NCBI GenBank assembly: GCA_018830295.1
Contig: JAHJSM010000001.1
Coordinates: 129,980 to 193,979 of the forward strand
Source: Patescibacteria group bacterium
GTDB lineage: Bacteria; Patescibacteriota; Minisyncoccia; Portnoybacterales; UBA2143
Reading direction: 5' to 3'
Length of the DNA stretch: 64,000 nt
Shown here: piece after piece, positions 29,273 through 52,291 of the stretch
How positions within the stretch are numbered: the stretch's first letter is position 1
Layout: every line of letters begins with the position of its first letter
The notes under the pieces: generated by a model
The model's input: the letters and a program-made list of their open reading frames with translations, nothing else
Told to the model about the DNA's origin: nothing
Database searches by the model: none
Program-made: the position numbers and the translations under genes

Positions 29273-29331
29273 GGGGGCTGCCCCCCGCAACGGGGGCAGC
29301 CCCCATCTTTACTGTTTGGGGGGCAGCCCCC
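29273..29331. repeat. REP-like GC-rich palindromic repeat cluster (family A: GGGGGCWGCCCCC units)
   Basis: gggggctgccccccgcaacgggggcagccccc plus an extra gggggcagccccc unit, in the 3'UTR of the anti-sigma gene. Confidence 0.8.
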
Positions 29332-29338
29332 ATCTTAA

Positions 29339-30088
29339 CTACTCACAAACATTAATCACCTCTTCCGTCGTTGTCGTTCCTCCCGTCTCCAATTCTCTCA
29401 AAAAGGTAAGTATCTCATAACCCGGCGTTGTCGTCCCCATTCCCTCTTCTCCATCAACCAACAAAACAGCCAAAATCTGCTGCCCAATATCCTTAATCGT
29501 CTCATCCGCTTCCACTAATTCATTCTTAATATCAGAAGACGCGTTTTCCTTAACTTTATCCAAATCCTCCTTAATCTGCTTCGTTCTGATTACAACCGCG
29601 ACCGCTTCTTCTTTTGAAATTTTATCAATATCTTGGCTGAAATTAGCCAAATTTCCTTTGAAATCAACAACTACCTTTCTCGCTTTTGCGTCCGATTCGC
29701 CTGAAACAAGGGAATTTTTCGTTATTTTCGTCAATTCTTCCAACCGACGGCAAGCGAAATCCGCCTGCAATTGGCTCTTTTCTCCACCTAATAAAGCCGC
29801 GCTTTGAACGCTTTCACCCGCTCTTTTAACGGAATAAAGCAATTCCCCAGGCAAACTCATTTGCGCCGCCTTTAAGGTCATCCAAGGTCCTCCAATAAAA
29901 ATCAAAGCCAGACAAGCCGCCAAAGCCATTGACTGCGTTTGTCTAATCCATTCAAAAAAGCCAACTGGCTCATCAAAGCCAATCTTCGCCATCAAATCCC
30001 GTCGCGCCAAATCAACCCATTCTCCCGATGGCTCAACTTTCCGCAATCCCTTGATTTTTTTAATTAAATCTCTATCTCTTGTCTCCAT
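29339..30088 (-). CDS. Putative membrane-anchored anti-sigma factor
   Basis: Immediately downstream of the ECF sigma gene. Short cytoplasmic N-terminus, single TM (MALAACLALIFIGGPWMTL), then an extracytoplasmic domain. Confidence 0.45.
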   Translation of the reverse strand: METRDRDLIKKIKGLRKVEPSGEWVDLARRDLMAKIGFDEPVGFFEWIRQTQSMALAACLALIFIGGPWMTLKAAQMSLPGELLYSVKRAGESVQSAALLGGEKSQLQADFACRRLEELTKITKNSLVSGESDAKARKVVVDFKGNLANFSQDIDKISKEEAVAVVIRTKQIKEDLDKVKENASSDIKNELVEADETIKDIGQQILAVLLVDGEEGMGTTTPGYEILTFLRELETGGTTTTEEVINVCE

Positions 30089-30141
30089 ACTAAGTATGAC
30101 GAACCCCCGCTCATTTTGTTACACAGTAAGGGGGGAAAGAT

Positions 30142-30242
30142 GGGGGCTGCCCCCGTTGCGGGGGCAGCCCCCATCGGGGAAATCGGGGGCAGCCCCCATC
30201 TTCTAGGCATCGGGGGCTGCTCCCGCAACGGGGGCAGCCCCC
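30142..30242. repeat. REP-like repeat cluster (family A, 3 units), overlapping the 3' end of the sigma factor CDS
   Basis: Units at 30142-30172 (full hairpin), 30185-30197 (half) and 30212-30242 (full hairpin, one mismatch). Each is followed by ATC(T/G). Confidence 0.8.
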
Positions 30243-30745
30243 ATCTTACACTTCAACTCCTTCAACGCCCTATGAATCAACACCCTAACCGTTCCTTCGG
30301 GCTTTTCTAAAATTTGGGCGATTTCCTTGTTTGAAAAGTCATCCAAATAGCGCCAAATGATAATATTTTGATATTTATTCTCAATCTGACCAAGCGCCTT
30401 TTTTACTTCCTCCACATCAGAATCTATATTCAATCGGCTGTTTAAATCAAATTTATCTTCAATTTTAGATAAAATACTGTCTTCTGGGTCCATAATAAGA
30501 TCCGTCCGCGATTTTTTGCGATAAAAATCAATCACCAAATTATTGGCTATTTTATAAAGCAAAGCCCTTGGATTCTCAATAACTGTCTTATCCGAGCCGT
30601 CTTCCGAGACATTCCGCCAAAAACGCAAAAAAACCTCCGAAGTCAAATCCTCCGAGTCCCGAGGCGAACTAACCTTCAAGTAAACAAAACGATAAATCCG
30701 CCCCGCATACCTATCATAAATTTTAACAAACTCCCTCTTCTTCAT
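30203..30745 (-). CDS. RNA polymerase sigma-70 family ECF sigma factor
   Basis: Region 2 (EVFLRFW...YRKKSRTDL) and region 4 HTH (YLDDFSNKEIAQILEKPEGTVRVLIHRALKELK). The C-terminal 15 aa (CKMGAAPVAGAAPDA) are encoded by a REP copy. Confidence 0.75.
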   Translation of the reverse strand: MKKREFVKIYDRYAGRIYRFVYLKVSSPRDSEDLTSEVFLRFWRNVSEDGSDKTVIENPRALLYKIANNLVIDFYRKKSRTDLIMDPEDSILSKIEDKFDLNSRLNIDSDVEEVKKALGQIENKYQNIIIWRYLDDFSNKEIAQILEKPEGTVRVLIHRALKELKCKMGAAPVAGAAPDA

Positions 30746-30754
30746 AGGTTTAGA

Positions 30755-30832
30755 GGGGGGGCAGCCCCCGTTTTTGCGGGGGCAGCCCCCCGATTGGAGA
30801 AGGGGGCTGCCCCCGTTGCGGGGGCAGCCCCC
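30755..30832. repeat. REP-like repeat cluster (family A) between the RAYT gene stop and the sigma factor start
   Basis: Two half-units and one full 31-nt hairpin. The cluster ends 10 nt upstream of the sigma factor ATG. Confidence 0.8.
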
Positions 30833-30838
30833 AAGAAA

Positions 30839-31408
30839 CTATTCAAAATCAAGTTTTTCCTTAATTTGAAGGTCAACTACCTCCTCTTCTGTAACTCGTT
30901 TATACCATTCCGGCGAATTATCCCCCATTATCACCTCTTTGTCGCAAAGCGTTCCTTCGCGCGCTCCGATATAGTCGGGATAACTTGACCATTGATAATC
31001 CTCCAACTTACTAACCAAACCCGCAGAAAGAGGATTTAGGTGAATATATGACGAAAGATGCAGAAGATATTCATCTTTATCAATAATCTTACACCCGAAT
31101 CGACCTTGAAAAAGATGCCCTGTTTTACTATATTTCTTGTTGAAATACATTGAATAACTTGTATGTAAAGATGAAACGAACTTGGAAATAGGCGTTTCTG
31201 TATTTTGCCTTATTGCTAAATGAATGTGATTAGGCATTAAGCAATAAAAAACAATTGTAACATTATATTTTTTGTTATATTCTCTTGCTTTCTTTAAATA
31301 AAAAATATAATCTTCTTCATCTAAAAAGATATCTTTTTTATTATTACCACGATTATAAACATGGTAATACGCTCCTTCATAGTAAATTCTTGGTTTATAT
31401 TCTGCCAT
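30839..31408 (-). CDS. REP-associated tyrosine transposase (RAYT; IS200/IS605 TnpA-like Y1 HuH transposase)
   Basis: YYHVYNRGNNKKDIF and MPNHIHLAI (HuH) match the RAYT/COG1943 pattern. SYIHLNPLSAGLV is comparable to the YIYINPVKHG helix of E. coli RayT. The protein is flanked on both sides by REP hairpins. The start is placed at MAEYKP (ATG at 31408). The longer ORF to 31456 reads through a REP. Confidence 0.75.
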   Translation of the reverse strand: MAEYKPRIYYEGAYYHVYNRGNNKKDIFLDEEDYIFYLKKAREYNKKYNVTIVFYCLMPNHIHLAIRQNTETPISKFVSSLHTSYSMYFNKKYSKTGHLFQGRFGCKIIDKDEYLLHLSSYIHLNPLSAGLVSKLEDYQWSSYPDYIGAREGTLCDKEVIMGDNSPEWYKRVTEEEVVDLQIKEKLDFE

Positions 31409-31416
31409 ATGTATTT

Positions 31417-31471
31417 TGGGGGCTGCCCCCGTTGCGGGGGCAGCCCCCATTTCCACGCGGGGGCTGCCCCC
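31417..31471. repeat. REP-like repeat pair (family A) immediately upstream of the RAYT gene
   Basis: Full 31-nt hairpin at 31417-31447 and a half-unit at 31458-31471. Confidence 0.8.
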
Positions 31472-31527
31472 AATTGTTTTCTATACAGTATAGGCGAAAA
31501 GAGATAAAACAGCAAGAGTTTTGTTCA

Positions 31528-34500
31528 TTACTCCCCAAATGCGTACAAAGTTCCGTCGTCGGAGGCGATGTAGATTGTTCCTGTGGAATCAATCGCGGCT
31601 CCTTGGGAAATGACATCGTTTAATTCTTCGGATTGCCATTTGAGAGAGCCGTCGGGGTTAACCGCGTAAAATGTTTTGCTGTTGGAACCGATGTAAATTG
31701 TTCCTTCCTTGTCAATGATTGGCGAGGCGTGAATTTTTCCTTGCGCGTTGAAAGTCCACTTAGTGCTATCATCTGTCTTATTTAAGGCGTGAAGATAATA
31801 ATCATGACTGCCAACATAGATCACATCTTGCCCAACGACTGGTATTGAATTACTAATCTCGCCAACCTGAACAAGATTAGACCATTTTAGACCACCATCA
31901 GATGAATTGAGAGCGTATAAACCATAAATACCGCCAACAAAAATTGTTCCATTATCATCCAAAGCGGGGGCGGTATCAAATGTGCTTGAAGCGCTTTTCC
32001 AAACGATGCTTCCGTCTTGAGGGTTAAGGGCGTAGACATTTCTACTGTTGTCGCCAGGACCTATTTGGCTAACAGTATAAATAATTCCATCTGAATCCAA
32101 AACTGGCGCTTTGACCCAATCTCCATTACTTAAATCCTGATTTTGCCAAACTAATTCTCCGTTGGGATTGAGGGCGTAAAGACCGTATTTAGAGCCGACA
32201 TAGATGGTTCCGTCGGAGGTGATTGTTGGTGAGGAGCCGTCGTGAATATTGTATTTCCATTTTAATTGGCCTTCTGAAGATAAAGCGTATAGATAATGAT
32301 AATTGTCAGATATGTAAATTGTTCCATCCGAAGCGATGGCGGGCGTCTGGATGGTTCCTATGGTTTGAGTGTTATAAAACAATTCCGCTGTTCCTGTGGC
32401 GTTGTCAAAGCTAACTTTGTAGAGGTTGCCGCTGCCTGCGCCGATATATATTTCCCCCTTCAAACCAATAACAGGAGACGATGGGCTGCTGCTTCCTAAA
32501 ATTATTTCCCTCGGAGTACTGGTCGGAGTTCCTGTAGCTGTTCCCGTATTAGAACTTAATCCGCTATGCCGGATATCGCCTTGAAGCATAGGCCAAGCCG
32601 TGTCGGCTAATTCAGGGAAGACAGCGTCTGGCTCAATTAAACTTAAAGAATTTTGCGGATTGGGAACGGTTTGCAAAACAAAGTCCTGACTGTTGTCATC
32701 TCTGTCTATATTATTCCCGCTCCAATGATGCGCGCCGTTGACCGCCAAAAGTTCCGCCGTAGAACTAGCAAATGCTTGGCGTTCTAAACTACCCCAAGGA
32801 AAACTATCAGTATCAACTGGCTTTCCCTCCGCTCCCAAACTATCTTTTCCCCAAGCGATCAAATCAACTGTTTCGTTATCACTTTTTAATAACTTGATTT
32901 TGCCTCCTGCGGCGGATAGATCTAAATAAGTCGGATCGCCCGTGGAAAGAGCCATGGCCGTCAAATCTGGCTCCATACCATAAGAATAACCAGCAGAACT
33001 AGTAGCGGAAGTTAAGAGATAATAACTATGGCTGGGTAAGTTGAAATTAGGCAAGGAACTAGTTGCTTCGCCGTCAACATTAAAATATATGCGATACCAA
33101 GTAGTAGTTGATTGAGACGAAGCGCGTCGCATAGACCAACCGCTCAAATTGATTGGATCATTGGTTGGGTTGTACAATTCAATAAATTCGTCGGTCTTGC
33201 GGCTATCGCCCAGCTGAACGGATATTTCGCTAATAACTATATTCTCCGCTATGGCTGATGGGCTGGAAGAGGCGATATTGGAAATTTCAGAAAGATTTCC
33301 CATATCATCTTCGGACTTTATTGCCCAGTAATATGTTTTGCTTGGCGTTAAGTTAGATATAGTTAAATTTTCCGTGCTGCTCGCGGAAGACGGCGACGGC
33401 TCGCCGACAATATCAGTTGAAGACGCCCAGTTGAGAGCGGTGATTTCGTAGGAAGTGGAGTATCTGATGATGTATGACGAAACAACGATGCTGTCACCCG
33501 GGGCAGTCCAGGAGAGGGCGACTGTCCCTCGGGTGACTCCCGAAGTTGCTGACAAGTCGGAAACAACCGACGGGGGAGTCGTGTCAACAATTAAATTTAG
33601 CAATACATCCTCGCTTTCGTTTTGAGCCGCGTCAATCGCTTTTACGGCGAGATTGTTTTCGCCTTCCAATAAATCAAGAATGCAATCCCAATCGCCCAAT
33701 CCGTCCGCGGTTGTCGTTGCTGCCGTTGTTGAGGCGAGGGAGACAGAAACAAGAAAACCAGGTGAAGATGTTCCAATCAAATTGATTTGATTAAAACCCA
33801 AAATATCCCCCGAAGCATGAGATGTGATGGAGACCACGGGAACGGAGACGGGGGCTGCCCCCGCAACGGGGGCAGCCCCCGATGCCCCACCCCCAATCGG
33901 AAAAGAAAATCCAAAAGGATGAGGAGACGGAACCGCTGGCTCTTCTTCTACCTCTTCTTCAATTTTCTCTTCTTCAACAATAATTATTTCCTCTATTTTC
34001 TCTACCTCTTTTACTTCTTTTATTACTTCAACTTCTTTTATTTCCTTTACTTCTTCTATCACTTCTACCTTCTCTATTACTTCTACCTTCTCTATCACTT
34101 CTATATTTTTTACTTCCTTAACAACAGGATTATTAACCAATGCCCCGCCAATTCCTGCTGATTGAAATGTTAAACCATTATTTCCGCCAAATAGTTCATC
34201 CCAAAAATTCCCAACAACCTCCATCACATATCCAGCATTTATCGGTCTTGTTTCTTCGGGATTGTAATACATAGATTGTTCCCAAGGATATTTAGATGTT
34301 CCGCCGCCTAATTCAATAACAAAAATACTTTTGCTCGCTTCTATTTCTTTGCTTTTGCCAAGTTTTGCCAAATGAAGCAAATCTATTCCTAATATGGGCG
34401 ACTTTGTTAGAGTTATCGCGCCATTAAATTGAGCAATATATTCCTGTGTTATTTCTTTTAGTTTGTAATTGTTATACGCGATTTTATAGCCGTCTTTACT

Positions 34501-35094
34501 CCATTTTTCTATTCTATCCCACATAAAAAAATTACAAATCTCATCACCTTCCTCATCAACACAAACAGCGTGCGAACCATTGGCAACATAAGCCCAAATA
34601 TGATTTGTTTTAGGACTTTCAATTTCTGTATCAAAGGTTTTTCTATGATGAGCCGTTCCAACTGTTCTAATAACTTCTTTTGTTTCTTTATCAACAAAGA
34701 CAAAGACCGCTTCCCAGTCGCTATAGTGTTTATTTTTAACTGTTACTGGATTATTATTGAAAACAAAAAAAGTCCAATACTCATAAACCCAATGGTCGCC
34801 CTCGTCTTCTATGTGGTAGAAAACGACAATATTGTTGGTTTTTTCAGCAAAAGAGAGATTATTATATTTCGCTCTAGCTTCCGCTCCTTCAATTTCTTCT
34901 CCGTTGACAAAATAAAAATCCAACGGGTCGGTTGGATAATATTGCTCATCAGGGTCAAATTGAAAATTAGGCGCGTAATTTAAGACAGAAGGAGGATTAT
35001 TCCCGTCATTCTGCCCCAAAACAAAAAAAGCAATCGAGCAAATAAAAAAAACAAAAAGTAAGATATATGACTTTGGAAAATAAAAGTTTTTCAT
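31528..35094 (-). CDS. Giant secreted multidomain surface protein (about 1188 aa): N-terminal domain, charged E/V/K/I-rich repeat linker, FN3-like domain, lamin-tail domain (LTD), C-terminal PQQ-like beta-propeller
   Basis: Signal peptide MKNFYFPKSYILLFVFFICSIAFFVLG. LTD-like IVISEISVQLGDSRKTDEFIELYNPTNDPINLSGW. C-terminal repeated G(T/E)IY(I/V)GS...Y(A/L)(L/V)N..(D/N)GS.KW motifs typical of PQQ-like propeller blades. An in-frame REP copy lies at 33850-33880. The start is placed at ATG 35094. The ORF extension to 35193 reads through REPs. Confidence 0.65.
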   Translation of the reverse strand: MKNFYFPKSYILLFVFFICSIAFFVLGQNDGNNPPSVLNYAPNFQFDPDEQYYPTDPLDFYFVNGEEIEGAEARAKYNNLSFAEKTNNIVVFYHIEDEGDHWVYEYWTFFVFNNNPVTVKNKHYSDWEAVFVFVDKETKEVIRTVGTAHHRKTFDTEIESPKTNHIWAYVANGSHAVCVDEEGDEICNFFMWDRIEKWSKDGYKIAYNNYKLKEITQEYIAQFNGAITLTKSPILGIDLLHLAKLGKSKEIEASKSIFVIELGGGTSKYPWEQSMYYNPEETRPINAGYVMEVVGNFWDELFGGNNGLTFQSAGIGGALVNNPVVKEVKNIEVIEKVEVIEKVEVIEEVKEIKEVEVIKEVKEVEKIEEIIIVEEEKIEEEVEEEPAVPSPHPFGFSFPIGGGASGAAPVAGAAPVSVPVVSITSHASGDILGFNQINLIGTSSPGFLVSVSLASTTAATTTADGLGDWDCILDLLEGENNLAVKAIDAAQNESEDVLLNLIVDTTPPSVVSDLSATSGVTRGTVALSWTAPGDSIVVSSYIIRYSTSYEITALNWASSTDIVGEPSPSSASSTENLTISNLTPSKTYYWAIKSEDDMGNLSEISNIASSSPSAIAENIVISEISVQLGDSRKTDEFIELYNPTNDPINLSGWSMRRASSQSTTTWYRIYFNVDGEATSSLPNFNLPSHSYYLLTSATSSAGYSYGMEPDLTAMALSTGDPTYLDLSAAGGKIKLLKSDNETVDLIAWGKDSLGAEGKPVDTDSFPWGSLERQAFASSTAELLAVNGAHHWSGNNIDRDDNSQDFVLQTVPNPQNSLSLIEPDAVFPELADTAWPMLQGDIRHSGLSSNTGTATGTPTSTPREIILGSSSPSSPVIGLKGEIYIGAGSGNLYKVSFDNATGTAELFYNTQTIGTIQTPAIASDGTIYISDNYHYLYALSSEGQLKWKYNIHDGSSPTITSDGTIYVGSKYGLYALNPNGELVWQNQDLSNGDWVKAPVLDSDGIIYTVSQIGPGDNSRNVYALNPQDGSIVWKSASSTFDTAPALDDNGTIFVGGIYGLYALNSSDGGLKWSNLVQVGEISNSIPVVGQDVIYVGSHDYYLHALNKTDDSTKWTFNAQGKIHASPIIDKEGTIYIGSNSKTFYAVNPDGSLKWQSEELNDVISQGAAIDSTGTIYIASDDGTLYAFGE
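33850..33880. repeat. REP family A hairpin embedded in frame inside the giant surface protein CDS
   Basis: gggggctgcccccgcaacgggggcagccccc translated as ...GGGASGAAPVAGAAPVSV... in the CDS frame. Confidence 0.8.
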
Positions 35095-35105
35095 CCAGGA
35101 TCTTT

Positions 35106-35160
35106 GGGGGCTGCCCCCGTTGCGGGGGCAGCCCCCTTCCCCAAATCGGGGGCTGCCCCC
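35106..35160. repeat. REP-like repeat pair (family A) in the short intergenic region upstream of the giant surface protein gene
   Basis: Full hairpin at 35106-35136 and half-unit at 35147-35160. Confidence 0.8.
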
Positions 35161-35165
35161 TTTAT

Positions 35166-35798
35166 CTAATTCTCGCTGCCCCAAACTCCCCACCCCAAAA
35201 ACACCCCAAAAATAGCGCTCATTAAAGAAAAAGTTAATAGATAACTAATCATTTGACAATCAAACAAAAAACCAAACGAATTTCCAATCACAGGCGCGAT
35301 TAAGGAGCCAAGAGCGAATCCAACCCCGCCTCTCCAAGTCAAAGACCATTTTTTAAGTTTGAAGAATAGGGAGTAGAGAAAACTGACAATAATGCCCATT
35401 ATGAAGAAAAATAGCCAAAAGTCGCCTACTGTAATATTTGGATCTAAATTCAAAAACTTATTAAATGTCGCAGCGCTTGCAAGTGGCTCCATAAAAAAAC
35501 TTGAGAGATAAATTCCAATAAGATACAAAGGATACTGGAATATCGCCGTCACAATAAATCCAATCACCAATCCCACAAAAACAACTAAAACCGACACTGC
35601 CATTTTCTTCGCGCTTTTCGAAAACCATTGCAAAGCAATTCCGCCGAATATACTTAAAGCGATAGCAAATGAGTAATGAAAAGTATATTCTATATCAGGA
35701 ATTCCCATATACATCACCACCCCCCAAATCAACCCGCCTAAACCAAACCCCAACGCGACGGTCAATAAATACTTCTTTAACGATATTATGTTGTCCAT
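35166..35798 (-). CDS. Polytopic membrane protein (about 6 TM), function unknown
   Basis: Six hydrophobic helices. No recognisable catalytic motif. Confidence 0.5.
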   Translation of the reverse strand: MDNIISLKKYLLTVALGFGLGGLIWGVVMYMGIPDIEYTFHYSFAIALSIFGGIALQWFSKSAKKMAVSVLVVFVGLVIGFIVTAIFQYPLYLIGIYLSSFFMEPLASAATFNKFLNLDPNITVGDFWLFFFIMGIIVSFLYSLFFKLKKWSLTWRGGVGFALGSLIAPVIGNSFGFLFDCQMISYLLTFSLMSAIFGVFLGWGVWGSEN

Positions 35799-35834
35799 AA
35801 AATTCTCCTTTCTTTTTAATTTTAACTTTTAATC

Positions 35835-35869
35835 GGGGACAGTCCCCATTCAAAATGGGGACTGTCCCC
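35835..35869. repeat. Inverted pair of family B palindromic units (GGGGACAGTCCCC ... GGGGACTGTCCCC) forming a 13-bp stem hairpin
   Basis: ggggacagtcccc-attcaaaat-ggggactgtcccc, 37 nt upstream of the membrane protein start. Confidence 0.75.
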
Positions 35870-35976
35870 AAAAGATATATCCCTATCCCAATGAAATGAT
35901 TTGAAATCCTTTTTCTCCCATTATATCACAAAATCGCTTGCGGAAAAATGGGAGGGTATAACAGCAACAACAACAA

Positions 35977-36037
35977 GGTCAGACCTTCAGAAAGAGAATT
36001 GAGGTCAGACCTTTTCAGTTTTGAAAGGTCTGACCTC
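35977..36037. promoter_or_regulatory. Three copies of the palindromic 11-mer AGGTCWGACCT (two direct, one inverted): candidate terminator and/or operator sites
   Basis: aggtcagacctt at 35977 and 36002, and aaggtctgacct at 36026. Located 30 nt downstream of the pseudo-protease gene stop. Confidence 0.45.
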
Positions 36038-36066
36038 AATGCTTCTTAACCCAAGGATTTTTTTTA

Positions 36067-36819
36067 TTAAAACCCTGCAAATAATTTGATTTGACTGGAG
36101 GGGATTGTTTCAATGAGGCCTTTTTGGTCTACTAGGTTTAGACCGATGACCTCGCCCTTGATATTAACCAACGGACCGCCATTGGCTGAAGAATTTTGCT
36201 CAGTTAAATTGATTTTGAGAATTTTCGCGTAAATACTTCTAATGATGCCTAAATTAACAAAACGATTTAACCCTTCTTCTGTTAATTCGGCGCCTATTAA
36301 AATAATCCTCTGTCCTAATCGCAAGTCCTCAAAATCAACAAAAGAAACGACTGGCAAATTACTCTCGCCTATTTTAAGCAAAGCCAGATTACTTCCCACG
36401 TCTTTTTTCACGACTTCCGCCGCCAAAGAATGACTATTTCTAAAAATTAAATACCGGTCGGCTTTAGTGGAAATATTGTCAGCCGCCGTTATAATCAAGC
36501 CATCGCTCGCAATCACGAAACCCGAACCCTGACTAATTATTTTCTCCCCTTGAAGCGCCTGGACAATAACCAAGCAAGGTCCGACCTTACTCACGGCGTC
36601 TTCTATCGCCGTATTTTCAGTAATAACAATTTTTTCTGTTGGATTGATAATAGTTGTCCCATTTCCCGATTGATGAATAAATTTAATTTTAGAAAATGAA
36701 GGAATTGTGGAAAGATACGGTAAAAAAAACTGGTCAGCCAAAACGCCGCCCAGCCCTCCAATGACCAAAATTGCGAACAAATTAAAAACTTTTTTACGCA
36801 TAAACAAGATTTGCCTCAA
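36067..36819 (-). CDS. Membrane-anchored trypsin-fold (S1C/HtrA-like) protein with the catalytic triad apparently substituted (predicted inactive pseudo-protease)
   Basis: N-terminal TM. GSGFVIASDGLIITAADNI aligns to DegP GSGFII..GYIVTNNHVI (H to D). SNLALLKI aligns to TDIALLKI (D to N). NSSANGGPLVNIKGEVIGLN aligns to NPGNSGGPLLNLNGEVIGIN (S to N). Confidence 0.6.
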   Translation of the reverse strand: MRQILFMRKKVFNLFAILVIGGLGGVLADQFFLPYLSTIPSFSKIKFIHQSGNGTTIINPTEKIVITENTAIEDAVSKVGPCLVIVQALQGEKIISQGSGFVIASDGLIITAADNISTKADRYLIFRNSHSLAAEVVKKDVGSNLALLKIGESNLPVVSFVDFEDLRLGQRIILIGAELTEEGLNRFVNLGIIRSIYAKILKINLTEQNSSANGGPLVNIKGEVIGLNLVDQKGLIETIPSSQIKLFAGF

Positions 36820-36823
36820 ACGA

Positions 36824-37201
36824 CTACCAATTCAATTCTATCTTGCGGCTAATACTCATATATTCCCCCTTTGAAGTAATAGTATCCGAGCCATTGTAGT
36901 CGGCAGTATATTTCGCGCGAGCGTTAAAGTCAAGACTATCCGCAACAGTTCCCCCGCCAGCAACATCGCATCCAATTCCCATTTCTTTCCTCACCTCATA
37001 CAAACATCTCTCCGCGCCGGCGTCAGCGGCGTAAAGCGCGATGACTGATTGGCCTGTTTGCCCGGCTAATCTAGTCTGCTGGATTGTTAGAGTAGCTATC
37101 CCTATCACAATCGTTGAAATCATACTCAAAACCAAAACCGCCAAAACAATGGAAATCGCCCCTTTTTGAAAATTTTTTTCCACTAGTTGTCTTTTTGCCA
37201 T
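36824..37201 (-). CDS. PilX-N-like minor pilin / pseudopilin
   Basis: QKGAISIVLAVLVLSMISTIVIGIATLTI matches the PilX_N-type N-terminal hydrophobic segment. Confidence 0.45.
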   Translation of the reverse strand: MAKRQLVEKNFQKGAISIVLAVLVLSMISTIVIGIATLTIQQTRLAGQTGQSVIALYAADAGAERCLYEVRKEMGIGCDVAGGGTVADSLDFNARAKYTADYNGSDTITSKGEYMSISRKIELNW

Positions 37202-37211
37202 TTATTATATC

Positions 37212-37724
37212 TTAGAACCGCCTTGAAGCAATGGTGCTTTGCAAATCCATTTCAAACTCTTCTTCCACCTGTCCATCTACTGTTCCTATCTTCATGACTG
37301 TCGTAACGAGCGCGCGCGCGGGAAAGGACTCTTTCGTGACATAAAATCCGCCCACCACTTCAAGATCCGAAGGACTTAAATCCTGCCAAACTCCCGCATT
37401 TACTCGCCTTTGAATTTTGTCGCTGGAAAATTGATAATCAATGCTATCTCCATTAGAATTAATAATACTTAAAGAAATCAAACCATCACCTGAAGCTGAA
37501 ATAATTTCGCTCGCTCGGATTTCCTTATTCATTGTTTCTAAAATATAGCCAGCTGATTCTTGAACATTCTGCATCACAAAGACCCTTCGCTGGGTTTTAA
37601 TAACAGAAATAGATATTGTTGACACGCTTAACATAATTAAACTAAAAGTAGCCATAGCCACCAATAACTCAACTAATGTAAATCCGTTCTTTTTATCTTT
37701 GTTTTTCATTATTTCCAATTCCAT
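37212..37724 (-). CDS. Type IV pilin-like / pseudopilin protein (class III signal peptide)
   Basis: KNG|FTLVELLVAMATFSLIML is a canonical prepilin cleavage/methylation motif. Confidence 0.7.
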   Translation of the reverse strand: MELEIMKNKDKKNGFTLVELLVAMATFSLIMLSVSTISISVIKTQRRVFVMQNVQESAGYILETMNKEIRASEIISASGDGLISLSIINSNGDSIDYQFSSDKIQRRVNAGVWQDLSPSDLEVVGGFYVTKESFPARALVTTVMKIGTVDGQVEEEFEMDLQSTIASRRF

Positions 37725-38218
37725 AACCTATCTTCCGCGGTTAGATTCCGCCAAGCGCCGCCCCTTTGCCATTTAACTTCCACAACCACCTTAACTTCAT
37801 CAGAAGATATTTTCGTTAAACTAATTTTACGATAAAATTGACTATTATCGCCTGAATCATATTGATAAAGCCCGCTCACAGTATTAAATTTCAAAGGCAT
37901 TTCAGAAAAAGCCAACAAATTAGGATTGTCGTATTGAACCAAATAATCGCCGCTTAAAACTGTGTCATACCAATCGCTCCAATCCGACTGCGTCCTCCTC
38001 ATATATCTAACCATCTCTATCCCCTCCTGCGCCAAGCCCGAAGCGGTTAATCGCGCTTGACTCAAAGAAGCAGCCCGCAAAGAGGCCTGACTTAAATCTA
38101 AGATGCCAATCATGCCAACGGAAACAATAAAAATCGCGACAATTACGCCGATTAGAGAAAACCCAGATTTGGGGGCTGCCCCCGTTTTAGGGGGCAGCCC
38201 CCAAATAGATACTTTCAT
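37709..38218 (-). CDS. Type IV pilin-like / pseudopilin protein with a REP copy inside the leader-peptide coding region
   Basis: KSG|FSLIGVIVAIFIVSVGMIGIL prepilin-like segment. The leader MKVSIWGLPPKTGAAPKSG is encoded by a family A REP variant at 38171-38201. Confidence 0.55.
   Translation of the reverse strand: MKVSIWGLPPKTGAAPKSGFSLIGVIVAIFIVSVGMIGILDLSQASLRAASLSQARLTASGLAQEGIEMVRYMRRTQSDWSDWYDTVLSGDYLVQYDNPNLLAFSEMPLKFNTVSGLYQYDSGDNSQFYRKISLTKISSDEVKVVVEVKWQRGGAWRNLTAEDRLWNWK
38171..38201. repeat. REP family A variant (loop GTTTTA) within the pilin leader coding sequence
   Basis: gggggctgcccccgttttagggggcagccccc. Confidence 0.75.
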
Positions 38219-38224: not shown

Positions 38225-38782
38225 CTACTCAACTTGAATCAACCCAGCTGTGGTAACCCGAATCGTCTTAGATAAGGAAGAATTTGTAACCTTTAACGAG
38301 ATAGTCCCCGAAAGACCTGGCGTATTATTGCCGTTAATATAGGTGGTTGGCTGGGGCGGTTCAAAAAATATGCTCATTTTCCCGGCAGGCGTTGAAACCG
38401 AATCTACCTCAACGCCTTGAGGAAACAAGGAAACTTCTTCGATAATATCGTCCGATGACTGGTAAGTTGAATTATCGTTTACATCCCCGTAGATAATATA
38501 ATACGAATCGCCTTCTTCAAGATAAACGCCGTAGCCGTAATAGGCGCCCGCGATGTCAAAACCGCTCAAAGCCATATTTTGCGCTTTTCTAATATCGGAA
38601 ACCAATTTCTGAACGGACTGAGCCAAAATATATTTTCTTTGGCCTTGCCTGTAATTTGCTAAAGTGATGGCGGAGATTAAGCTGATAATGAACATTACTA
38701 CTAATAATTCCGTCATTGAAAAACCTCTCTCTCGCCAAAAAATATTTTTCATAATTTTTACCAAGGAATAATCTCCTTCCAA
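38225..38782 (-). CDS. Type IV pseudopilin (GspH/FimT-like)
   Basis: RERG|FSMTELLVVMFIISLISAITLA. The true start may be the internal Met MKNIFWRERG (about 38752), giving a 10-aa leader. Confidence 0.65.
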   Translation of the reverse strand: MEGDYSLVKIMKNIFWRERGFSMTELLVVMFIISLISAITLANYRQGQRKYILAQSVQKLVSDIRKAQNMALSGFDIAGAYYGYGVYLEEGDSYYIIYGDVNDNSTYQSSDDIIEEVSLFPQGVEVDSVSTPAGKMSIFFEPPQPTTYINGNNTPGLSGTISLKVTNSSLSKTIRVTTAGLIQVE

Positions 38783-40014
38783 TCGGGCAAACTCTCTTGG
38801 ACGCCAATTGTTTGGGTTTTTGAACAGGTGTATCCGTCTGAATCAGTTACCCTTAAAACAACATCCTTCTCGCCCGTCGTTGTAAATTGAATTGTCGGAT
38901 CTTGCGCGCTGGAAGAACCTGGATTACCGTTTTCAAATGTCCAAGACCAAGATGATTTTGACGCCCCGCCGTAAACAACCGACTGGTCGGAAAAAAGAAC
39001 ATCTTCTTCCACGCTTGGCTCGGTTGGCAACCAATTGAAATTAATTGATGGATACCGATGCGGTTCGGTCGCGAAAGAAGGACCAACCACCCAGCCGGAA
39101 TCATTACCCTCGCTGTCATAGACCTTTACCCGCCAATAATATGTCGTGCTGTATCCCAGTTGACCGGCCACGGGCGTTTCGGCAACTGTCACTGTTTGAT
39201 TATTTGTCGTCGGACTCGGATTAGATAATCCGCCAAAGTCGCGATCTACCTCAAGAGAACTAAAATCGCTGTTGTTGTCAACTTGGAATTGAAATCTTTC
39301 TTCATCGTCGCCGCTTGGGTCATAATAATTCCAAGAAAAATAGTGAGCCGCGTTGCCGCAATATGTCGTTGAATCTCCGACAGAAACACTAAGATCAGAA
39401 ACAATAGGCGACTGGACATCAATGATTACTTTGTAATTGCCGCCCGCGGCGGCATCGGCGCCGTTAAAACTAATCCAACCAACAACATCGCTACCCCAAG
39501 CCCATCCATGCCAGTCGCCATCCGCGCCAATATACGCCGGGTTGGCCTGACCATGATCAAACCTAATCCATCCGTCCCAACCGCCGCCATAAGAGAGCGC
39601 TCTAGCCCAACCATTAATATTAACATTTGATCTACCCAACTGATTTGACGGAACGGCCTTGGCAATGCAACTACTACCTGGACAAGGATCATTAGAAGGA
39701 GGAACCCCCGTATCGCTTTCGTTAAAACTAATCCAACCAATATGTTCCGACCATGCGTACCCGGAAAAATTACCATTACTCACATCTACATTAACTCCAT
39801 AATTAACAGCGCTTCCGTCAGAAAGATTATTAAAACTAATCCAACCGATGTTTTCCGACCAAGCAAATCCAACAACATTGTCTTCTAATCCAGCTTGAAC
39901 AATAGTAATTTTTTGACCAATACCAAAAAAAACAACAATGGCAACAATTAAAAAAATACTAATAAAAATGACTACTGATGCCAATTGTGTTTTTAAATGA
40001 AAAAATTTTAGCAT
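38758..40014 (-). CDS. Membrane-anchored repeat protein with four G(F/Y/W)AWSE.IGWISFN-type repeats and C-terminal FN3-like and PKD-like domains (putative pilus-associated adhesin)
   Basis: N-terminal signal anchor. Repeats GFAWSENIGWISFNN, GYAWSEHIGWISFNE, GWARAL..GGGWDGWIRFDH, GWAWGSDVVGWISFNG. The C-terminus has a PKD-like segment (WSWTFENGNP...VVLRVTDSDGYTCSKTQTIG). Confidence 0.5.
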   Translation of the reverse strand: MLKFFHLKTQLASVVIFISIFLIVAIVVFFGIGQKITIVQAGLEDNVVGFAWSENIGWISFNNLSDGSAVNYGVNVDVSNGNFSGYAWSEHIGWISFNESDTGVPPSNDPCPGSSCIAKAVPSNQLGRSNVNINGWARALSYGGGWDGWIRFDHGQANPAYIGADGDWHGWAWGSDVVGWISFNGADAAAGGNYKVIIDVQSPIVSDLSVSVGDSTTYCGNAAHYFSWNYYDPSGDDEERFQFQVDNNSDFSSLEVDRDFGGLSNPSPTTNNQTVTVAETPVAGQLGYSTTYYWRVKVYDSEGNDSGWVVGPSFATEPHRYPSINFNWLPTEPSVEEDVLFSDQSVVYGGASKSSWSWTFENGNPGSSSAQDPTIQFTTTGEKDVVLRVTDSDGYTCSKTQTIGVQESLPDWKEIIPW

Positions 40015-40164: not shown

Positions 40165-41163
40165 TTAAAATAATGTCCTTGAAAAAGAAACAATGAAGCT
40201 TTTAAAAAAAATAGTAATTAAAAGACCAAGAAACATCCAAAAAGCGAAGGAAATGTGAGTTTTTTGTTTTTGCGGAACAAATGAGAGCAAAGATGAAATA
40301 AGTATAAATACAAACATAAAAACTATTGAATTTTCAATTGAGAGAAAAAGTTTTGACCATATCGCTCGGGAATAAAAAATATAATTTATTATTAAATAAA
40401 AACTTATTACAACAAAAATAGTGATAACAATCCAAACTTTTCTTAAAAACTTTTCCAAAATTTTGCGAAAGACAATAATTAATAAAAACAAAATACCCTG
40501 CAATTCACTACTAAGCTGAACTCTAAGTTCTGTTTTGATTAATTGAAAGAATATAAAAATCATAAAATACCCAGTTCCAATCTTCAAATAATTATAATAA
40601 TCTTTTTTTAATGAATTTTTTAATTTTAAAATTCTTTCTTTGAGATTTAACATTTTCCCCTTAAAAGCCATTATGTCCCTGAAAAAAAGAAAAAAATTCT
40701 GACAAATTAAAAAAAGCAAAATTGGAATAAAAGTATTGATCAACAAAGAAAGAGAGGGAAAATAAGGAAACGCCGCGTCTTGATAATACTTAAGAGGCAA
40801 CAATAAAGAAAAAACAAAAAACAATTTAGCATCGCCAGCTGACCACAGATTAAAATACCAAAGAGCGTAACCAATTATTAAAGCAATAGCGCAATTAAGA
40901 AACACTTTCCCAAAATAATCCCACCTAATGGTAATAATCTGCCAAGAAGCGTCTACCGCCTCATGTTTAATGTTTGTATAGTAAAAAACCATTACTGGTT
41001 CAGCTATTAAATTCCAAATAGCTAAAACAATTAGTATCGCGACGCCATAAATCAATCCCGATACAATCCATTTATTTTTTATTTTTCCCTCTTTAAAATC
41101 TTGGTAGCTCGTAATTACACCGATTAAAAAAAGGCATGGTAAAAATAGGAAATCAAGTATCAT
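40165..41163 (-). CDS. A24-family prepilin peptidase, FlaK/PibD/TadV-type (no N-terminal zinc-finger domain), with extra C-terminal TM helices
   Basis: SYQDFKEGKI resembles the archaeal FlaK/PibD motif (VQDFRSREI) with the first catalytic Asp. SAGDAKLF matches the GGDVKL second catalytic Asp motif. Confidence 0.6.
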   Translation of the reverse strand: MILDFLFLPCLFLIGVITSYQDFKEGKIKNKWIVSGLIYGVAILIVLAIWNLIAEPVMVFYYTNIKHEAVDASWQIITIRWDYFGKVFLNCAIALIIGYALWYFNLWSAGDAKLFFVFSLLLPLKYYQDAAFPYFPSLSLLINTFIPILLFLICQNFFLFFRDIMAFKGKMLNLKERILKLKNSLKKDYYNYLKIGTGYFMIFIFFQLIKTELRVQLSSELQGILFLLIIVFRKILEKFLRKVWIVITIFVVISFYLIINYIFYSRAIWSKLFLSIENSIVFMFVFILISSLLSFVPQKQKTHISFAFWMFLGLLITIFFKSFIVSFSRTLF

Positions 41164-41164
41164 A

Positions 41165-42094
41165 TTAACTAATTGGGTTTAACTCTTTATCGCCATAATG
41201 CTTTATATAATCTCGCCAAATTCCTTCGCAAATATCGTAGGCCTTGCAACCATTGCATCTGTCTGTTTTAACGCGAGCCAATTGTTTTCTGGAATTTTCT
41301 ACATTTAAATTTGTAAAATCAGGCGCCAAATGTTCTGTGTGAAAAGTTTTTGATTCCTGAAATTCGCTAATTTGACCTTCGTATCCCACAAAATGACAAA
41401 AAGGAACATAACGAACTGTCCAATGAGGAATTTTATTTTTTCTTCCCAATTCCAAGCATTGACGAACATAGGGGGCAATTTTAGAAATTTTCGGAACAAA
41501 TCGAAAAAAATTATTATTAGCAGCTCCGTAAGTAGGATCCACAAAAATAAATTCAGAATTTTTAAATCCAAATTTTATAATTAACTGCCCAATTTTTTTT
41601 AAATACAAATAATTTTGCTTAATAATAATCGTATTGGTGCCTAACCGTTTGAGCCCCAAATCCTGAATATTTTTTATGCCTCGCGCCATTTGCTCAAAAC
41701 TTCCTTTTGATTGAGTTAGTAAATCATGTAGCTTCGCGTTATGCCCATGAATGGAAAAAATCAAATCAGTTAAACCAGCTTGAACAATTCTTTTAGCAAA
41801 TTTTTCATAAGCAAAAAGTCGACCGTTAGTAGCCATCACTATATTCTTAAATTTCAATTGAGAAGCAAATTTAATTAAATCAAGAATGTCAGGTCTAATG
41901 GTCGGTTCGCCCCCAATTAATTCTAAATAAGTAAAACCATTATTCCTGGCCCATGCCATTTCCTTCATAACTTGTTCGGTGGTTTTATCGACTAAATCTC
42001 TTTTATCAACATTCAAACAAAATTGGCAATTGTTGTTGCAACGATAACCAGTAATAATGACTATTTTATTAATTTTTTTACTTTTATTTTTCAT
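41165..42094 (-). CDS. Radical SAM protein (family 1: CX3CX2C plus C-terminal CX2CX5C-EG-W..Y...G motif)
   Basis: YRCNNNCQFC, IGGEPTIRP, SIHGHNAKLHD...KGSFEQ, C-terminal CNGCKAYDICEGIWRDY. The start is placed at MKNKSKK (ATG 42094), which overlaps the upstream gene's stop by 11 nt. The ORF extension to 42280 lies inside the neighbouring gene. Confidence 0.7.
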   Translation of the reverse strand: MKNKSKKINKIVIITGYRCNNNCQFCLNVDKRDLVDKTTEQVMKEMAWARNNGFTYLELIGGEPTIRPDILDLIKFASQLKFKNIVMATNGRLFAYEKFAKRIVQAGLTDLIFSIHGHNAKLHDLLTQSKGSFEQMARGIKNIQDLGLKRLGTNTIIIKQNYLYLKKIGQLIIKFGFKNSEFIFVDPTYGAANNNFFRFVPKISKIAPYVRQCLELGRKNKIPHWTVRYVPFCHFVGYEGQISEFQESKTFHTEHLAPDFTNLNVENSRKQLARVKTDRCNGCKAYDICEGIWRDYIKHYGDKELNPIS

Positions 42095-43019
42095 AAACAG
42101 GTTGGAATTCACTATCGCCAAAAAGTTTGGAATAACTATTCCAGACACCTTCGCAATTTTGGTAGTATTTGCACTCTTGGCATCTTTTAAATTTAGTTTT
42201 ATTTTTAATTCGCTCAAAATCAATACTTTCCACAATAATGTCTGGCGCGCCAACCTTGGTGTTAAAAGGGCTGGACTCAACCATTTTATCTTCGTGACCA
42301 GACAAACAGCAAAAAGGGATATTAAAAACTATTCCTTTATCTAATTCTAATTTGTCAATTAAATTAAGCGTTTTTTTTAAATAAGGCGCGACTTTTTTAA
42401 TACTAATTCCCACTTCACGCCAATTCTTGGCCATTCTCCCTGTATATAGGGGGTAAATAAAGCAAAAACTTCCGATCCCCATCTGACTAAAAAAATCAAC
42501 AAATTGCAAGTACTCTTTGTAATTATATTTGTTTATAACTGTATTTATCTCTATACGAACCTTTAATTCTTGTAAATTTTCGATAGTTTTTAATATATTT
42601 TTAAAAGCTCCTGGAACATTTACTAAATAATCATGTATTTTATCTTTATGGCTATGAATTGAAATTTTCACAAAATCTAAACCTGATTCGACTAAATGCT
42701 TGCAATAATCAGGATACGCGAGGGCAATGCCATTTGTTTCTATTCTAACAATATCAAATTTTAAATGTTTAGCGAAATTTATTAAGATTTGCAAATCTTT
42801 TCTTACTGTCGGCTCTCCGCCACCGATTCCTAAATACTTAAAACCATCTTTTTTAGCGTCATAAATTATTTTCAGAAGCTCTCTTGTTGAATTGTTAACA
42901 TTCCTTTTTTCTGGATCAATAGAACAAAACCTACAATTCGCGTTACAGACATAACCAGGCAATAACTCAAAGAGGTCTCTATCTTCCTTTTTTAATATTT
43001 TTGTATAATTTCCAAACAT
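42084..43019 (-). CDS. Radical SAM protein (family 1)
   Basis: VCNANCRFC, IGGGEPTVR, SIHSHKDKIHD...PGAF, C-terminal CQECKYYQNCEGVWNSY. Confidence 0.75.
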   Translation of the reverse strand: MFGNYTKILKKEDRDLFELLPGYVCNANCRFCSIDPEKRNVNNSTRELLKIIYDAKKDGFKYLGIGGGEPTVRKDLQILINFAKHLKFDIVRIETNGIALAYPDYCKHLVESGLDFVKISIHSHKDKIHDYLVNVPGAFKNILKTIENLQELKVRIEINTVINKYNYKEYLQFVDFFSQMGIGSFCFIYPLYTGRMAKNWREVGISIKKVAPYLKKTLNLIDKLELDKGIVFNIPFCCLSGHEDKMVESSPFNTKVGAPDIIVESIDFERIKNKTKFKRCQECKYYQNCEGVWNSYSKLFGDSEFQPVYEK

Positions 43020-43023
43020 AAGT

Positions 43024-43323
43024 TTAAACTAATTTTTTATACTGTTCGCCTTCCTCGGTTAAACTCCAAAAATATTCGCCTTTTTTAAGTTCTTTTTTAA
43101 CTAAATTTCTTTTAGATAATTTTTCACCAATAAAAAAAACTTCGCTCCTGTCGCTACAGGTGGCGCACATTTTAATTTTTTTTGCCAATATCAAAACTCT
43201 TTTGCTCGAGATATTGTTTTCAGTTTTTAATATTAATATCAAACATTTTTCAAGGTCGGTTAATGGTCTGTTGCCCTCGGAAGTTTTTATTAATAATCTT
43301 GAAGTTTTTTTAGAATTAATCAT
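43024..43323 (-). CDS. Small winged-helix-like protein (99 aa), function unknown
   Basis: LTDLEKCLILILKTENNISSKRVLILAKKI helix-turn-helix-like segment followed by a beta-hairpin-like EVFFIGEKL...KGEYFWSLTEEG. Confidence 0.3.
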   Translation of the reverse strand: MINSKKTSRLLIKTSEGNRPLTDLEKCLILILKTENNISSKRVLILAKKIKMCATCSDRSEVFFIGEKLSKRNLVKKELKKGEYFWSLTEEGEQYKKLV

Positions 43324-45400: not shown

Positions 45401-45432
45401 TTTGATTTATAGCTAAACGGTTTTTTTTATTA

Positions 45433-47757: not shown

Positions 47758-47777
47758 GATGTCTTATATGTTAACTA

Positions 47778-48266: not shown

Positions 48267-48277
48267 TAATTTTAATT

Positions 48278-49147: not shown

Positions 49148-49163
49148 TTAATTTGTAATGATA

Positions 49164-51202: not shown

Positions 51203-51227
51203 AAATTTATAAAATAATCACAAGTAA

Positions 51228-52280: not shown

Positions 52281-52291
52281 AGCTTAAGTCG

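Follow-up and report, generated by a model that had tools for sequence, protein, structure and literature searches.

HtrA-derived pseudoproteases have been described before. MamO is an HtrA pseudoprotease with a degenerate active site that occurs near an active paralogue, MamE, and its non-catalytic roles include the promotion of MamE proteolysis (PMC4794232). The second protease domain of the plant and fungal DEG7/Nma111p proteins has lost its triad and now serves in protein-protein interaction (trimerisation) (PMC3194040). Protease-dead DegP (S210A) is still a chaperone that suppresses toxic translocation and secretion intermediates (PMC5023192), and in E. faecalis a membrane-tethered HtrA removes off-pathway sortase pili at the membrane (PMC11326707). 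The present study concerns another protein of this type, here called pseudo-HtrA, which is encoded in a 64,000-nucleotide stretch of DNA from a Portnoybacteria-like Patescibacteria group bacterium (assembly GCA_018830295.1, contig JAHJSM010000001.1, positions 129,980 to 193,979); the whole stretch is referred to below as the window. Pseudo-HtrA is an HtrA/DegP (S1C)-derived pseudo-protease with a minimal two-barrel chymotrypsin fold in which the catalytic His, Asp and Ser are replaced by Asp, Asn and Asn. Throughout its clade the gene closes a minor-pilin operon, to which it is tightly coupled.

With HtrA, DegP, DegQ and DegS (MEROPS S1C) pseudo-HtrA shares a homologous chymotrypsin-fold domain, and HTRA1 is its best Protein Data Bank (PDB) match by both sequence and fold. 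Its likeness to the membrane-tethered HtrAs of Gram-positive and other monoderm bacteria lies in the N-terminal membrane segment and in a domain predicted to face outwards (PMC12826053). A genomic and probably functional link to protein quality control exists through the ClpB and active HtrA genes of its sister clades. However, pseudo-HtrA differs from HtrA/DegP in the absence of the His-Asp-Ser triad, of the PDZ domain and of loops LA and L3. Like MamO, it derives from HtrA and has been maintained by selection in spite of its degenerate triad. The two differ in origin, phylum and gene context, and MamO carries a TauE-like transporter domain at its C-terminus and a di-histidine metal site on its surface, neither of which is present in pseudo-HtrA; the NCBIfam MamO model scores pseudo-HtrA at 35 bits against a cut-off of 800. 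An active paralogue alongside, as MamO has, is seen in the sister clades (29 of 31 loci); in the lineage of the window none was found within the sequence covered, namely the window and the pilin-linked loci. The triad-less domain of DEG7/Nma111p belongs to a long, active protease of several domains, whereas pseudo-HtrA is free-standing, membrane-anchored and bacterial. DegP and the E. faecalis HtrA keep the PDZ domain and are active as wild types, and the E. faecalis pili are assembled by sortase and are not type IV pili.

Non-pilin genes within the minor-pilin operons of type IVa pili include pilY1 and pilY2, PilY1 being a beta-propeller/vWA protein. Pseudo-HtrA resembles them in being a non-pilin gene of a GspH/I/J/K-like minor-pilin operon. 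It has no sequence or fold kinship with PilY1, and its link to the pilus is one of gene neighbourhood. No description of the family was found in the full-text literature searched on HtrA pseudoproteases, on type IV pili (T4P) and minor pilins of Patescibacteria, on HtrA in the candidate phyla radiation, or on ClpB and HtrA of Patescibacteria. The last of these likewise gave no description of the gene order HtrA, clpB, triad-less HtrA, and a recent study of Saccharibacteria T4P names nothing protease-like at the pilus loci. From the known HtrA pseudoproteases the family is set apart by the free-standing core of ~180 residues with a single transmembrane (TM) segment, the phylum, the hundreds of protein clusters and the two conserved operon contexts.

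Fold and replaced catalytic triad

An earlier reading of the window, made from the letters and referred to here as the sequence-only reading, had described a trypsin-fold protein with H to D, D to N and S to N replacements in the motifs TAADNI, SNLALLKI and SSANGGPL. All three motifs are found in the open reading frame (ORF), and the fold and the replacements are confirmed by phmmer, MAFFT and hhalign. The features of the gene are listed below, with residues numbered in the 244-residue form of the protein (D108, N138 and N207 there are D114, N144 and N213 in the 250-residue form).

36067..36801, minus strand: pseudo-HtrA coding sequence, 244 residues plus stop (ORF list, ATG agreement with homologue P0001 and orthologues, Pfam Trypsin_2)
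36733..36789, minus strand: N-terminal hydrophobic segment, residues 5-23, VFNLFAILVIGGLGGVLAD, after RKK (Kyte-Doolittle 19-mer maximum 1.97)
36070..36606, minus strand: HtrA-type chymotrypsin-fold domain, residues 66-244, without LA, L3 and PDZ (phmmer, AlphaFold2, Foldseek, alignment)
36478..36480, minus strand: codon GAC, Asp108 (D114), at the catalytic His position (all alignments)
36388..36390, minus strand: codon AAT, Asn138 (N144), at the catalytic Asp position (all alignments)
36181..36183, minus strand: codon AAT, Asn207 (N213), at the catalytic Ser position, within SSANGGPL (all alignments)

Pfam Trypsin_2 matches with E 6.6e-17 and 63 bits (cut-off 27.6), model positions 1-144 of 144 covering residues 98-227 of the 250-residue ORF. 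A phmmer search of all PDB sequences gave the human HTRA1 protease domain as the best match (E 2e-15); it also matched human HTRA2 and HTRA3 and bacterial DegP, DegQ, DegS, HhoA and AlgW, in each case in the protease domain. The AlphaFold2 model (46 homologues) has a mean predicted local distance difference test score (pLDDT) of 86.9, with values >90 across the barrel domain. Foldseek against the PDB places HTRA1 protease domains on top (8se7_S: E 2.5e-17, TM(target) 0.84, ~31% identity). In the phmmer alignment with HTRA1, TAADNI lies under TNAHVV (D at His220), SNLALLKI under ADIALIKI (N at Asp250) and SSANGGPL under YGNSGGPL (N at Ser328). The register is identical in a MAFFT alignment with five active Patescibacteria HtrAs carrying His, Asp and Ser (HDS), and in an hhalign comparison of the D/N/N clade alignment with active Patescibacteria HtrAs (probability 99.9%, E 3.6e-33). 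A register shift that would bring back H, D and S was therefore rejected, three alignments giving one register. The missing PDZ domain of the sequence-only reading holds as well: Pfam finds no PDZ match in pseudo-HtrA, and the protein stops 17 residues past the last barrel strand.

The active HtrAs of Patescibacteria have 406-425 residues, the HDS triad, a Trypsin_2 score of 126 bits and a PDZ_2 domain. Aligned with five of them, pseudo-HtrA shows a gap of ~37 columns at LA, between the first strands, and of ~16 columns at L3; compared with HTRA1, its L3/LD region is 11 residues shorter. The IQTDAAINPGNSGGPL block conserved in active HtrAs is missing, and KINLTEQNSSANGGPL is found instead. LA, L3 and PDZ are the elements that serve allosteric activation and cage assembly in HtrA (PMC12826053, PMC11642142). 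The GSGF, L1 xGGPL and L2 GLN motifs, which form the cleft, are retained in pseudo-HtrA and are its best-conserved non-glycine features. Pseudo-HtrA lacks three defining features of HtrA (catalytic triad, PDZ domain, regulatory loops); it cannot be an S1C-type protease, and a protease annotation is unsuitable. No NCBIfam model reaches its cut-off for the protein, the HtrA, DegP and MamO equivalogs all falling far under; those of HtrA and DegP give 35-65 bits against cut-offs of 400-800.

The reading frame had earlier been given as 36067-36819. A 250-codon ORF is indeed present there on the minus strand if read from a TTG at 36819, but this start adds six codons beyond the ATG at 36801. Because P0001 ("serine protease [Candidatus Portnoybacteria bacterium]", 98% identical) and all orthologues start at that ATG, the 244-residue product is likely the true one. 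The sequence GAGG precedes the ATG, inside the 22-nt gap to the stop codon of the upstream gene.

The N-terminal TM segment, read earlier as an anchor, is also present. Pseudo-HtrA has a single hydrophobic stretch (residues 5-23; mean Kyte-Doolittle hydropathy 1.97) with RKK in front, a helix is predicted by AlphaFold2 at residues 2-30, and G15, G19 and P28 are ≥90% conserved among 90 family members with a mean identity of 33%. Residues 5-23 probably form an N-in membrane anchor. A prepilin-like N-terminus was considered and rejected. The pseudo-HtrA N-terminus, MRKKVFNLFAILVIGGLGG, has neither a G/FxxxE class III signal (cleavage sites are written here with a slash) nor an N_methyl match, in contrast to the four genes upstream, which have such leaders.

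Conservation and selection

A word-indexed homologue search gave 248 clusters, of which the best 120 (52-98% identical, 218-258 residues) were analysed; all of these came from Portnoybacteria or from Patescibacteria metagenomes. Taxon names of metagenome-assembled genomes follow the deposited records, in which "Saccharibacteria" is probably a generic label in several cases. Among the best 120 and the query (n = 121), D occupies the His position in 110 sequences, with N in 10 and S in 1, and N is found in 113 at the Asp position and in 113 at the Ser position. Codon comparisons gave ratios of nonsynonymous to synonymous substitution (dN/dS) of 0.114 for a pair of 98% identity, 0.128 at 75% and 0.088 at 73%. 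An intact reading frame is found in >200 homologues, and 25 columns are invariant among 46 aligned sequences. Pseudo-HtrA is thus a selectively maintained pseudo-enzyme under strong purifying selection, as the sequence-only reading had anticipated when it set a conserved pseudo-enzyme against a recent pseudogene. That the gene was inactivated recently and is now decaying accounts for the loss of the triad and for nothing further; it is refuted by the intact frames, a dN/dS of ~0.1, the kept substitutions and the depth and diversity of the family, and can be practically dismissed.

The wider family, which is widespread in Patescibacteria, was examined by an exhaustive search of representatives of 50% clustering, which yielded 635 proteins at E ≤1e-10; the best 150 were scored for the triad. 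It is missing in 149 of these best 150 of 635 representatives, most of which have 225-265 residues, and the sole H/D/S protein among them has 425 residues, a PDZ-bearing length. Outside the clade of the window, the His position holds D, E, S or N, the Asp position N, G or D, and the Ser position almost anything. The most persistent replacement is the Asn at the old Asp position, with a conservation of ≥90% in two clades, one of them the ClpB-linked sister clade. Fold residues conserved family-wide are G92, G94, D100, G101, L139-L141, G163, G185, G208, L211, G216 and G220; of these, G92, G94, D100, G101, G208, L211, G216 and G220 belong to the cleft-forming motifs and are conserved both in the clade of the window and in the ClpB-linked sister clade. 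The TM motif (G15, G18/G19, P28) and the linker pair E62-N63 are also conserved throughout the family. Specific to the clade of the window is the conservation of the D/N/N trio and of the N-terminal linker TTIINPTE. As a conjecture, the conserved D/N/N trio could keep a hydrogen-bond network that links the two barrels.

Such conservation of acidic and polar residues (E62, N63, D100, D134, R165, N183 and N198) might be taken to mean that pseudo-HtrA still hydrolyses some substrate through non-canonical residues. In the family alignments, however, the domain has no invariant Ser, His, Cys or Lys, which makes a cryptic catalytic centre unlikely. The only His residues, at 43 and 124, and the one Cys, at 76, lie outside the conserved columns, and the nucleophile position is hypervariable family-wide. 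A cryptic enzyme is accordingly very improbable.

Intermediates between the active and the triad-less forms exist. Proteins of the Moranbacteria type, with ~380-395 residues, have already lost the triad (DNI, TNV, FDA, SNV and others) yet keep L3 and a PDZ_2 domain, and several proteins of ~400 residues have retained the Ser and lost the His (EDS, QNS, ASS). A neighbour-joining tree, which is crude and carries no support values, orders the proteins as active, partly degenerate with PDZ, triad-less with PDZ, triad-less of intermediate length, and triad-less without PDZ. In this tree the D/N/N clade of the window is a terminal branch, and the triad-less clade is a derived sister of the active Patescibacteria HtrAs. 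The active protein P0213 carries the same N-terminal linker motif (VVNKTEQ), so the motif was inherited and not invented in the triad-less lineage. Triad-less HtrAs of ~380-395 residues with PDZ and L3 were found at loci L035, L036, L039-L041 and L044-L047. A DUF5656 membrane protein always precedes them, and in Moranbacteria FtsK follows; the 818-residue product of that following gene had been considered a penicillin-binding protein, which was rejected on its Pfam match to FtsK. At L036 the order is active HtrA, ClpB, DUF5656 protein, triad-less HtrA.

Linkage to minor pilins

Pseudo-HtrA is the last gene of a six-gene module on one strand, which runs from a PKD protein through GspH-, PilV-, ComGF- and PilX-like genes. 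The other members of the module and the hairpin that follows it are given below.

38758..40014, minus strand: TM-anchored PKD/Ig-domain protein, 418 residues, opening the module (Pfam PKD_4 E 3e-7)
38225..38782, minus strand: pseudopilin A, GspH-like, G/FSMTELLV (N_methyl E 7e-6, GspH E 6.7e-4; NCBIfam GspH E 1e-6, below cut-off)
37709..38218, minus strand: pseudopilin B, PilV/GspI-like, 169 residues, G/FSLIGV (N_methyl E 8e-5; NCBIfam PilV E 5.5e-10, below cut-off)
37212..37724, minus strand: pseudopilin C, ComGF/GspJ-like, 170 residues, G/FTLVELLV (N_methyl E 4e-8; NCBIfam ComGF E 8e-9, below cut-off)
36824..37201, minus strand: PilX/GspK-like minor pilin, 125 residues, QKG/AISIVLAVL, no Glu5 (PilX_N E 1.6e-4, below the Pfam cut-off; orthologue N-termini conserved)
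35999..36039, minus strand: hairpin with a 16-bp stem and a 9-nt loop, then UUCUCUUUCU (RNA fold of 35960-36070)

The position of the gene behind four co-oriented pseudopilin genes, as first described, is correct, three of them being N_methyl genes and one a weak PilX_N-like gene. By their sequences the four form a minor-pilin quartet of the H/I/J/K type, assigned by resemblance since the named similarities besides N_methyl fall under the curated cut-offs; the prepilin leaders are conserved in >20 orthologous operons. The true start of pseudopilin A is likely the ATG at 38752, judging from orthologue N-termini. Past the pseudo-HtrA stop codon the hairpin starts after 28 nt and is followed by a U-rich tract. 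The fold of 35960-36070 on the minus strand has -39.8 kcal/mol (z = -6.1; 0 of 200 shuffles equally stable), and the hairpin is probably an intrinsic terminator at the end of the operon; a consensus terminator scan did not report it, owing to the 9-nt loop. The N-terminal half of the PKD/Ig protein contains four copies of an aromatic motif (VGFAWSENIGWISFN, SGYAWSEHIGWISFN, GGWDGWIRFD and HGWAWGSDVVGWISFN), and no family model matches there. PilD (A24_N_bact and Peptidase_A24) and a PilA-like prepilin are encoded at 62523-63808 on the same minus strand, 25 kb from the minor-pilin module.

Loci of the same clade were taken from one genome per species and from contigs carrying identical proteins, which gave 25 informative loci. 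The PilX-like gene stands directly upstream of pseudo-HtrA in 21 distinct contigs and in the window. The gaps range from about -7 to 80 nt and are approximate because ORF starts in the related loci are first-start-codon calls. In one contig, L023, a PKD gene stands between the two. In the basal members L021 and L025 pseudo-HtrA follows pilB, pilT, pilC, pilA and pilD, and in L009, L023 and L024 the order is pilT/pilC, pilA, pilD, minor pilins, pseudo-HtrA, rmlB. T4P genes lie upstream of pseudo-HtrA in all 25 informative loci. The surroundings of the six-gene module differ between loci, with a radical-SAM cluster or a polyketide synthase (the latter in L052) upstream and, downstream, rmlB, a CDP-alcohol phosphatidyltransferase, a Y1 transposase, a 753-codon gene with no relation to the module or a gene on the opposite strand. 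Most related loci have the PKD gene together with the module; L052, in which the polyketide synthase replaces the radical-SAM genes, is one of them. As the flanks vary while the linkage to the PilX-like gene stays, pseudo-HtrA travels with the pilin genes in this clade.

The linkage could nevertheless be a matter of history, T4P genes having been inserted into a block of clpB, pseudo-HtrA and rml, so that pseudo-HtrA would have a general role in the envelope or in cell-wall glycan and be expressed by read-through from the pilin promoter. An rmlB, rmlC or rmlD gene lies directly downstream in the ClpB-linked loci L027 and L029-L033, such a gene also lies directly downstream in the pilin-linked loci L004, L009, L011, L012, L015, L016, L018, L021 and L023-L025, and in L009, L023 and L024 an entire T4P super-operon precedes pseudo-HtrA and rmlB. 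However, the pilin linkage persists where the rml linkage is lost (the window, L001, L002, L049, L051 and L052), and the gap to the PilX-like gene is only a few nucleotides or an overlap. Historical adjacency is for these reasons an unlikely explanation.

The same operon position would also suit a non-pilin structural or adhesive part of the pilus, secreted after cleavage at VLA/DQ and seated on the minor-pilin tip, where the inactive cleft would act as a peptide-binding adhesin to the host. Pseudo-HtrA is the terminal gene of the module at distances typical of translational coupling, its D/N/N trio and TTIINPTE linker are kept specifically in this clade, an AxA-like site follows the hydrophobic segment, and T4P minor pilins with accessory domains in Patescibacteria bind hosts (PMC11623550). 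On the other side, across the wider family the TM glycines are conserved and the AxA-like site is not, orthologues beyond the clade are not pilus-linked, and the protein has no pilin-like class III signal and no PilY1-like domain by Pfam. A tip component of this kind seems improbable.

Active HtrA, ClpB and pseudo-HtrA in sister clades

A scan of loci with the single protein P0142 gave no relative. A metagenome scan with A6, a 10-sequence alignment of the large sister clade, gave 80 loci (L054-L133). In genomes, the distant PDZ-less members (L027-L034, 34-41% identity) have clpB immediately upstream in 8 of 8 cases, usually with iscS-nifU, and in L031 with an active HtrA, before clpB, and with rmlC, rmlB or rmlD downstream. 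In the metagenome loci with any upstream sequence clpB precedes the triad-less gene in 68 of 68, and genome and metagenome loci together have clpB immediately upstream in 76 of 76. The gap from clpB has a median of ~3 nt, and stop and start codons overlap in 29 metagenome loci. Among the 31 loci with at least 4.6 kb of upstream sequence, an HtrA of ~420-450 residues precedes clpB in 29. The full-length HtrAs of these loci have H/D/S in 31 of 31, whereas the triad is missing in 80 of 80 of the short proteins. The order (iscS-nifU), active HtrA, clpB, triad-less HtrA is thus conserved in L054-L133 and L027-L034. This arrangement of active HtrA, ClpB and pseudo-HtrA, often followed by rml genes, is the commonest one and, from the neighbour-joining tree, probably the older one; it is a proteostasis operon.

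In the lineage of the window, T4P genes occupy the place of clpB upstream of pseudo-HtrA, and no active HtrA and no ClpB are encoded within the 64-kb window. Ancestrally the gene seems to have served general envelope proteostasis, or to have been a partner of the active HtrA, and not to have acted in pilus biogenesis, because clpB is upstream in all 76 loci, an active HtrA accompanies it in 29 of 31, and the pilus linkage is lineage-specific. A single locus per genome (one genome per species) favours relocation over duplication, though only weakly.

Another possibility is that pseudo-HtrA is a regulatory or structural partner of an active HtrA and would form mixed oligomers with it through the trimer interface, through GxxxG-type TM helices or through both. 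Such a partner could tune, localise, activate or temper proteolysis, in the last case as a decoy, or could serve as a scaffold; in the lineage of the window the process concerned would be pilin turnover. The conserved gene order, in which the active copies are all HDS and which also occurs at L031, L035, L036 and L043, speaks for it. So do the small-residue TM motifs of both kinds of protein (G15/G19 in the triad-less, G25/G29 in the active), the sister position of the triad-less clade in the crude tree, and the precedents of MamO/MamE (PMC4794232) and DEG7 (PMC3194040). Against it, no active HtrA is found in the window or in any pilin-linked locus. The aromatic residues of the HTRA1 trimer interface, Y169/F171, are unmatched in pseudo-HtrA, though they are also unmatched in the active bacterial copies. 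A partnership of this sort is the main rival reading and is put forward tentatively.

Proposed function

The reading we prefer, with a probability of roughly one half, is that pseudo-HtrA is a non-catalytic holdase or adaptor in envelope quality control, which in this lineage is aimed at pilin or pilus-priming intermediates. By the positive-inside rule, the N-in topology would place the fold on the outer face of the cytoplasmic membrane. The retained cleft (GSGF, L1 xGGPL, L2 GLN) would there bind extended or unfolded polypeptide without cutting it; binding without cutting is the simplest activity that remains to the fold. The protein would then serve as a holdase or adaptor, and this role fits best in view of the precedents of protease-dead DegP and the E. 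faecalis HtrA. Co-transcription with minor pilins would make membrane-embedded pilin or pilus-priming intermediates the preferred clients, which pseudo-HtrA could hold, or shield from an active HtrA, until assembly.

Several points weigh against the holdase or adaptor role. The pilin linkage is confined to one clade, and the downstream rmlB, rmlC or rmlD neighbour is kept in many clades, so that the adjacency to pilins could in part be inherited gene order. Residues at the former active site vary across the wider family, where no common chemical site is evident. The N-terminal segment may be a cleavable signal peptide with the site VLA/DQ instead of an anchor. Cage chaperoning of the DegP type requires PDZ, LA and L3, all of which are missing in pseudo-HtrA. 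Finally, peptide binding and pilin clients are both predictions from fold, conservation and neighbourhood. The sequence-only reading had offered a chaperone, an assembly factor or a decoy for the pilus. Its pilus part is sustained by the operon coupling within the clade and curtailed by the lineage-specific nature of that linkage, clpB being the upstream neighbour in 76 of 76 loci elsewhere.

A more specific version would make pseudo-HtrA an ancient member of the HtrA-ClpB trio that in one lineage was captured by a minor-pilin operon. Its role there would be that of a chaperone or shield without catalysis that is reserved for pilins, or of a peptide-binding factor at the pilus tip. Pseudo-HtrA would then be the first protease-fold accessory of type IV filaments, and this in organisms whose episymbiotic life depends on pili. 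This scenario is speculative and remains on the doubtful side.

Other features of the window

A GC-rich 13-nt palindrome, GGGGGCWGCCCCC, occurs in 22 copies against 0.01 expected, all within 29273-38202 (9 kb). The copies form doublets or triplets ~5 nt apart, for example at 30142-30172, 30757-30832, 31418-31471, 33850-33880, 35106-35160 and 38171-38202. An ORF at 30839-31456 on the minus strand encodes a Y1_Tnp/IS200-like transposase (E 2e-16) with palindrome copies on both sides, an arrangement that looks, from the sequence, like a REP/RAYT system (repetitive extragenic palindromes with a REP-associated tyrosine transposase). The copies at 38171-38202 are in frame and supply most of the pseudopilin B leader (MKVSIWGLPPKTGAAPKSG/FSLIG versus MFKIFKSNKA/FSLIG in orthologues), and between pseudopilin genes A and B the palindromic repeat forms a 17-bp hairpin. 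Those at 33850-33880 are in frame as a GAAPVAGAAP insert in a surface protein of 1221 residues with LTD, fn3 and beta-propeller domains (ORF 31528-35193).

This surface protein (31528-35193, minus strand; fn3, LTD, PQQ-like beta-propeller) follows the operon together with a polytopic membrane protein of 210 residues (35166-35798, minus strand) that has no family match. The pair recurs 2-4 kb downstream of pseudo-HtrA in L001, L012, L014, L016 and L022. Upstream of the PKD gene come a 150-nt gap and a sharp drop in GC content from ~0.45 to ~0.25-0.33, and then an A24-like membrane protein. The region 40165-54367 on the minus strand is a low-GC cluster (0.29-0.31 versus 0.42 for the pilin module) with eight or more radical-SAM genes, including a double-domain gene of 774 codons. 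It also contains a pyruvoyl-dependent arginine decarboxylase, two aminotransferases, a DUF483 protein and a membrane protein of 332 residues with a weak Peptidase_A24 match. The two radical-SAM genes adjoining the pilin module match HxsC-type models best, far under the cut-off. The block of radical-SAM gene, membrane protein, PKD gene and pilins recurs in L001, L002, L007, L010, L012 and L016, and in L052 there is a polyketide synthase instead.

Implications

Databases call the members of this family "serine protease" or "S1C family serine protease", which is functionally wrong for at least several hundred protein clusters. Since the tiny genomes of Patescibacteria retain this inactive enzyme under strong purifying selection, its role is probably an important one. 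The occurrence of the same fold in a clpB-operon and in a pilin-operon context offers a comparative system for the functional recruitment of pseudo-enzymes. If pseudo-HtrA is a holdase or a regulator of HtrA, it would be a natural minimal version, of ~180 residues, of the much-debated chaperone half of HtrA, and it would offer a way into the question of how ultra-small episymbionts assemble and control the pili with which they attach to their hosts.

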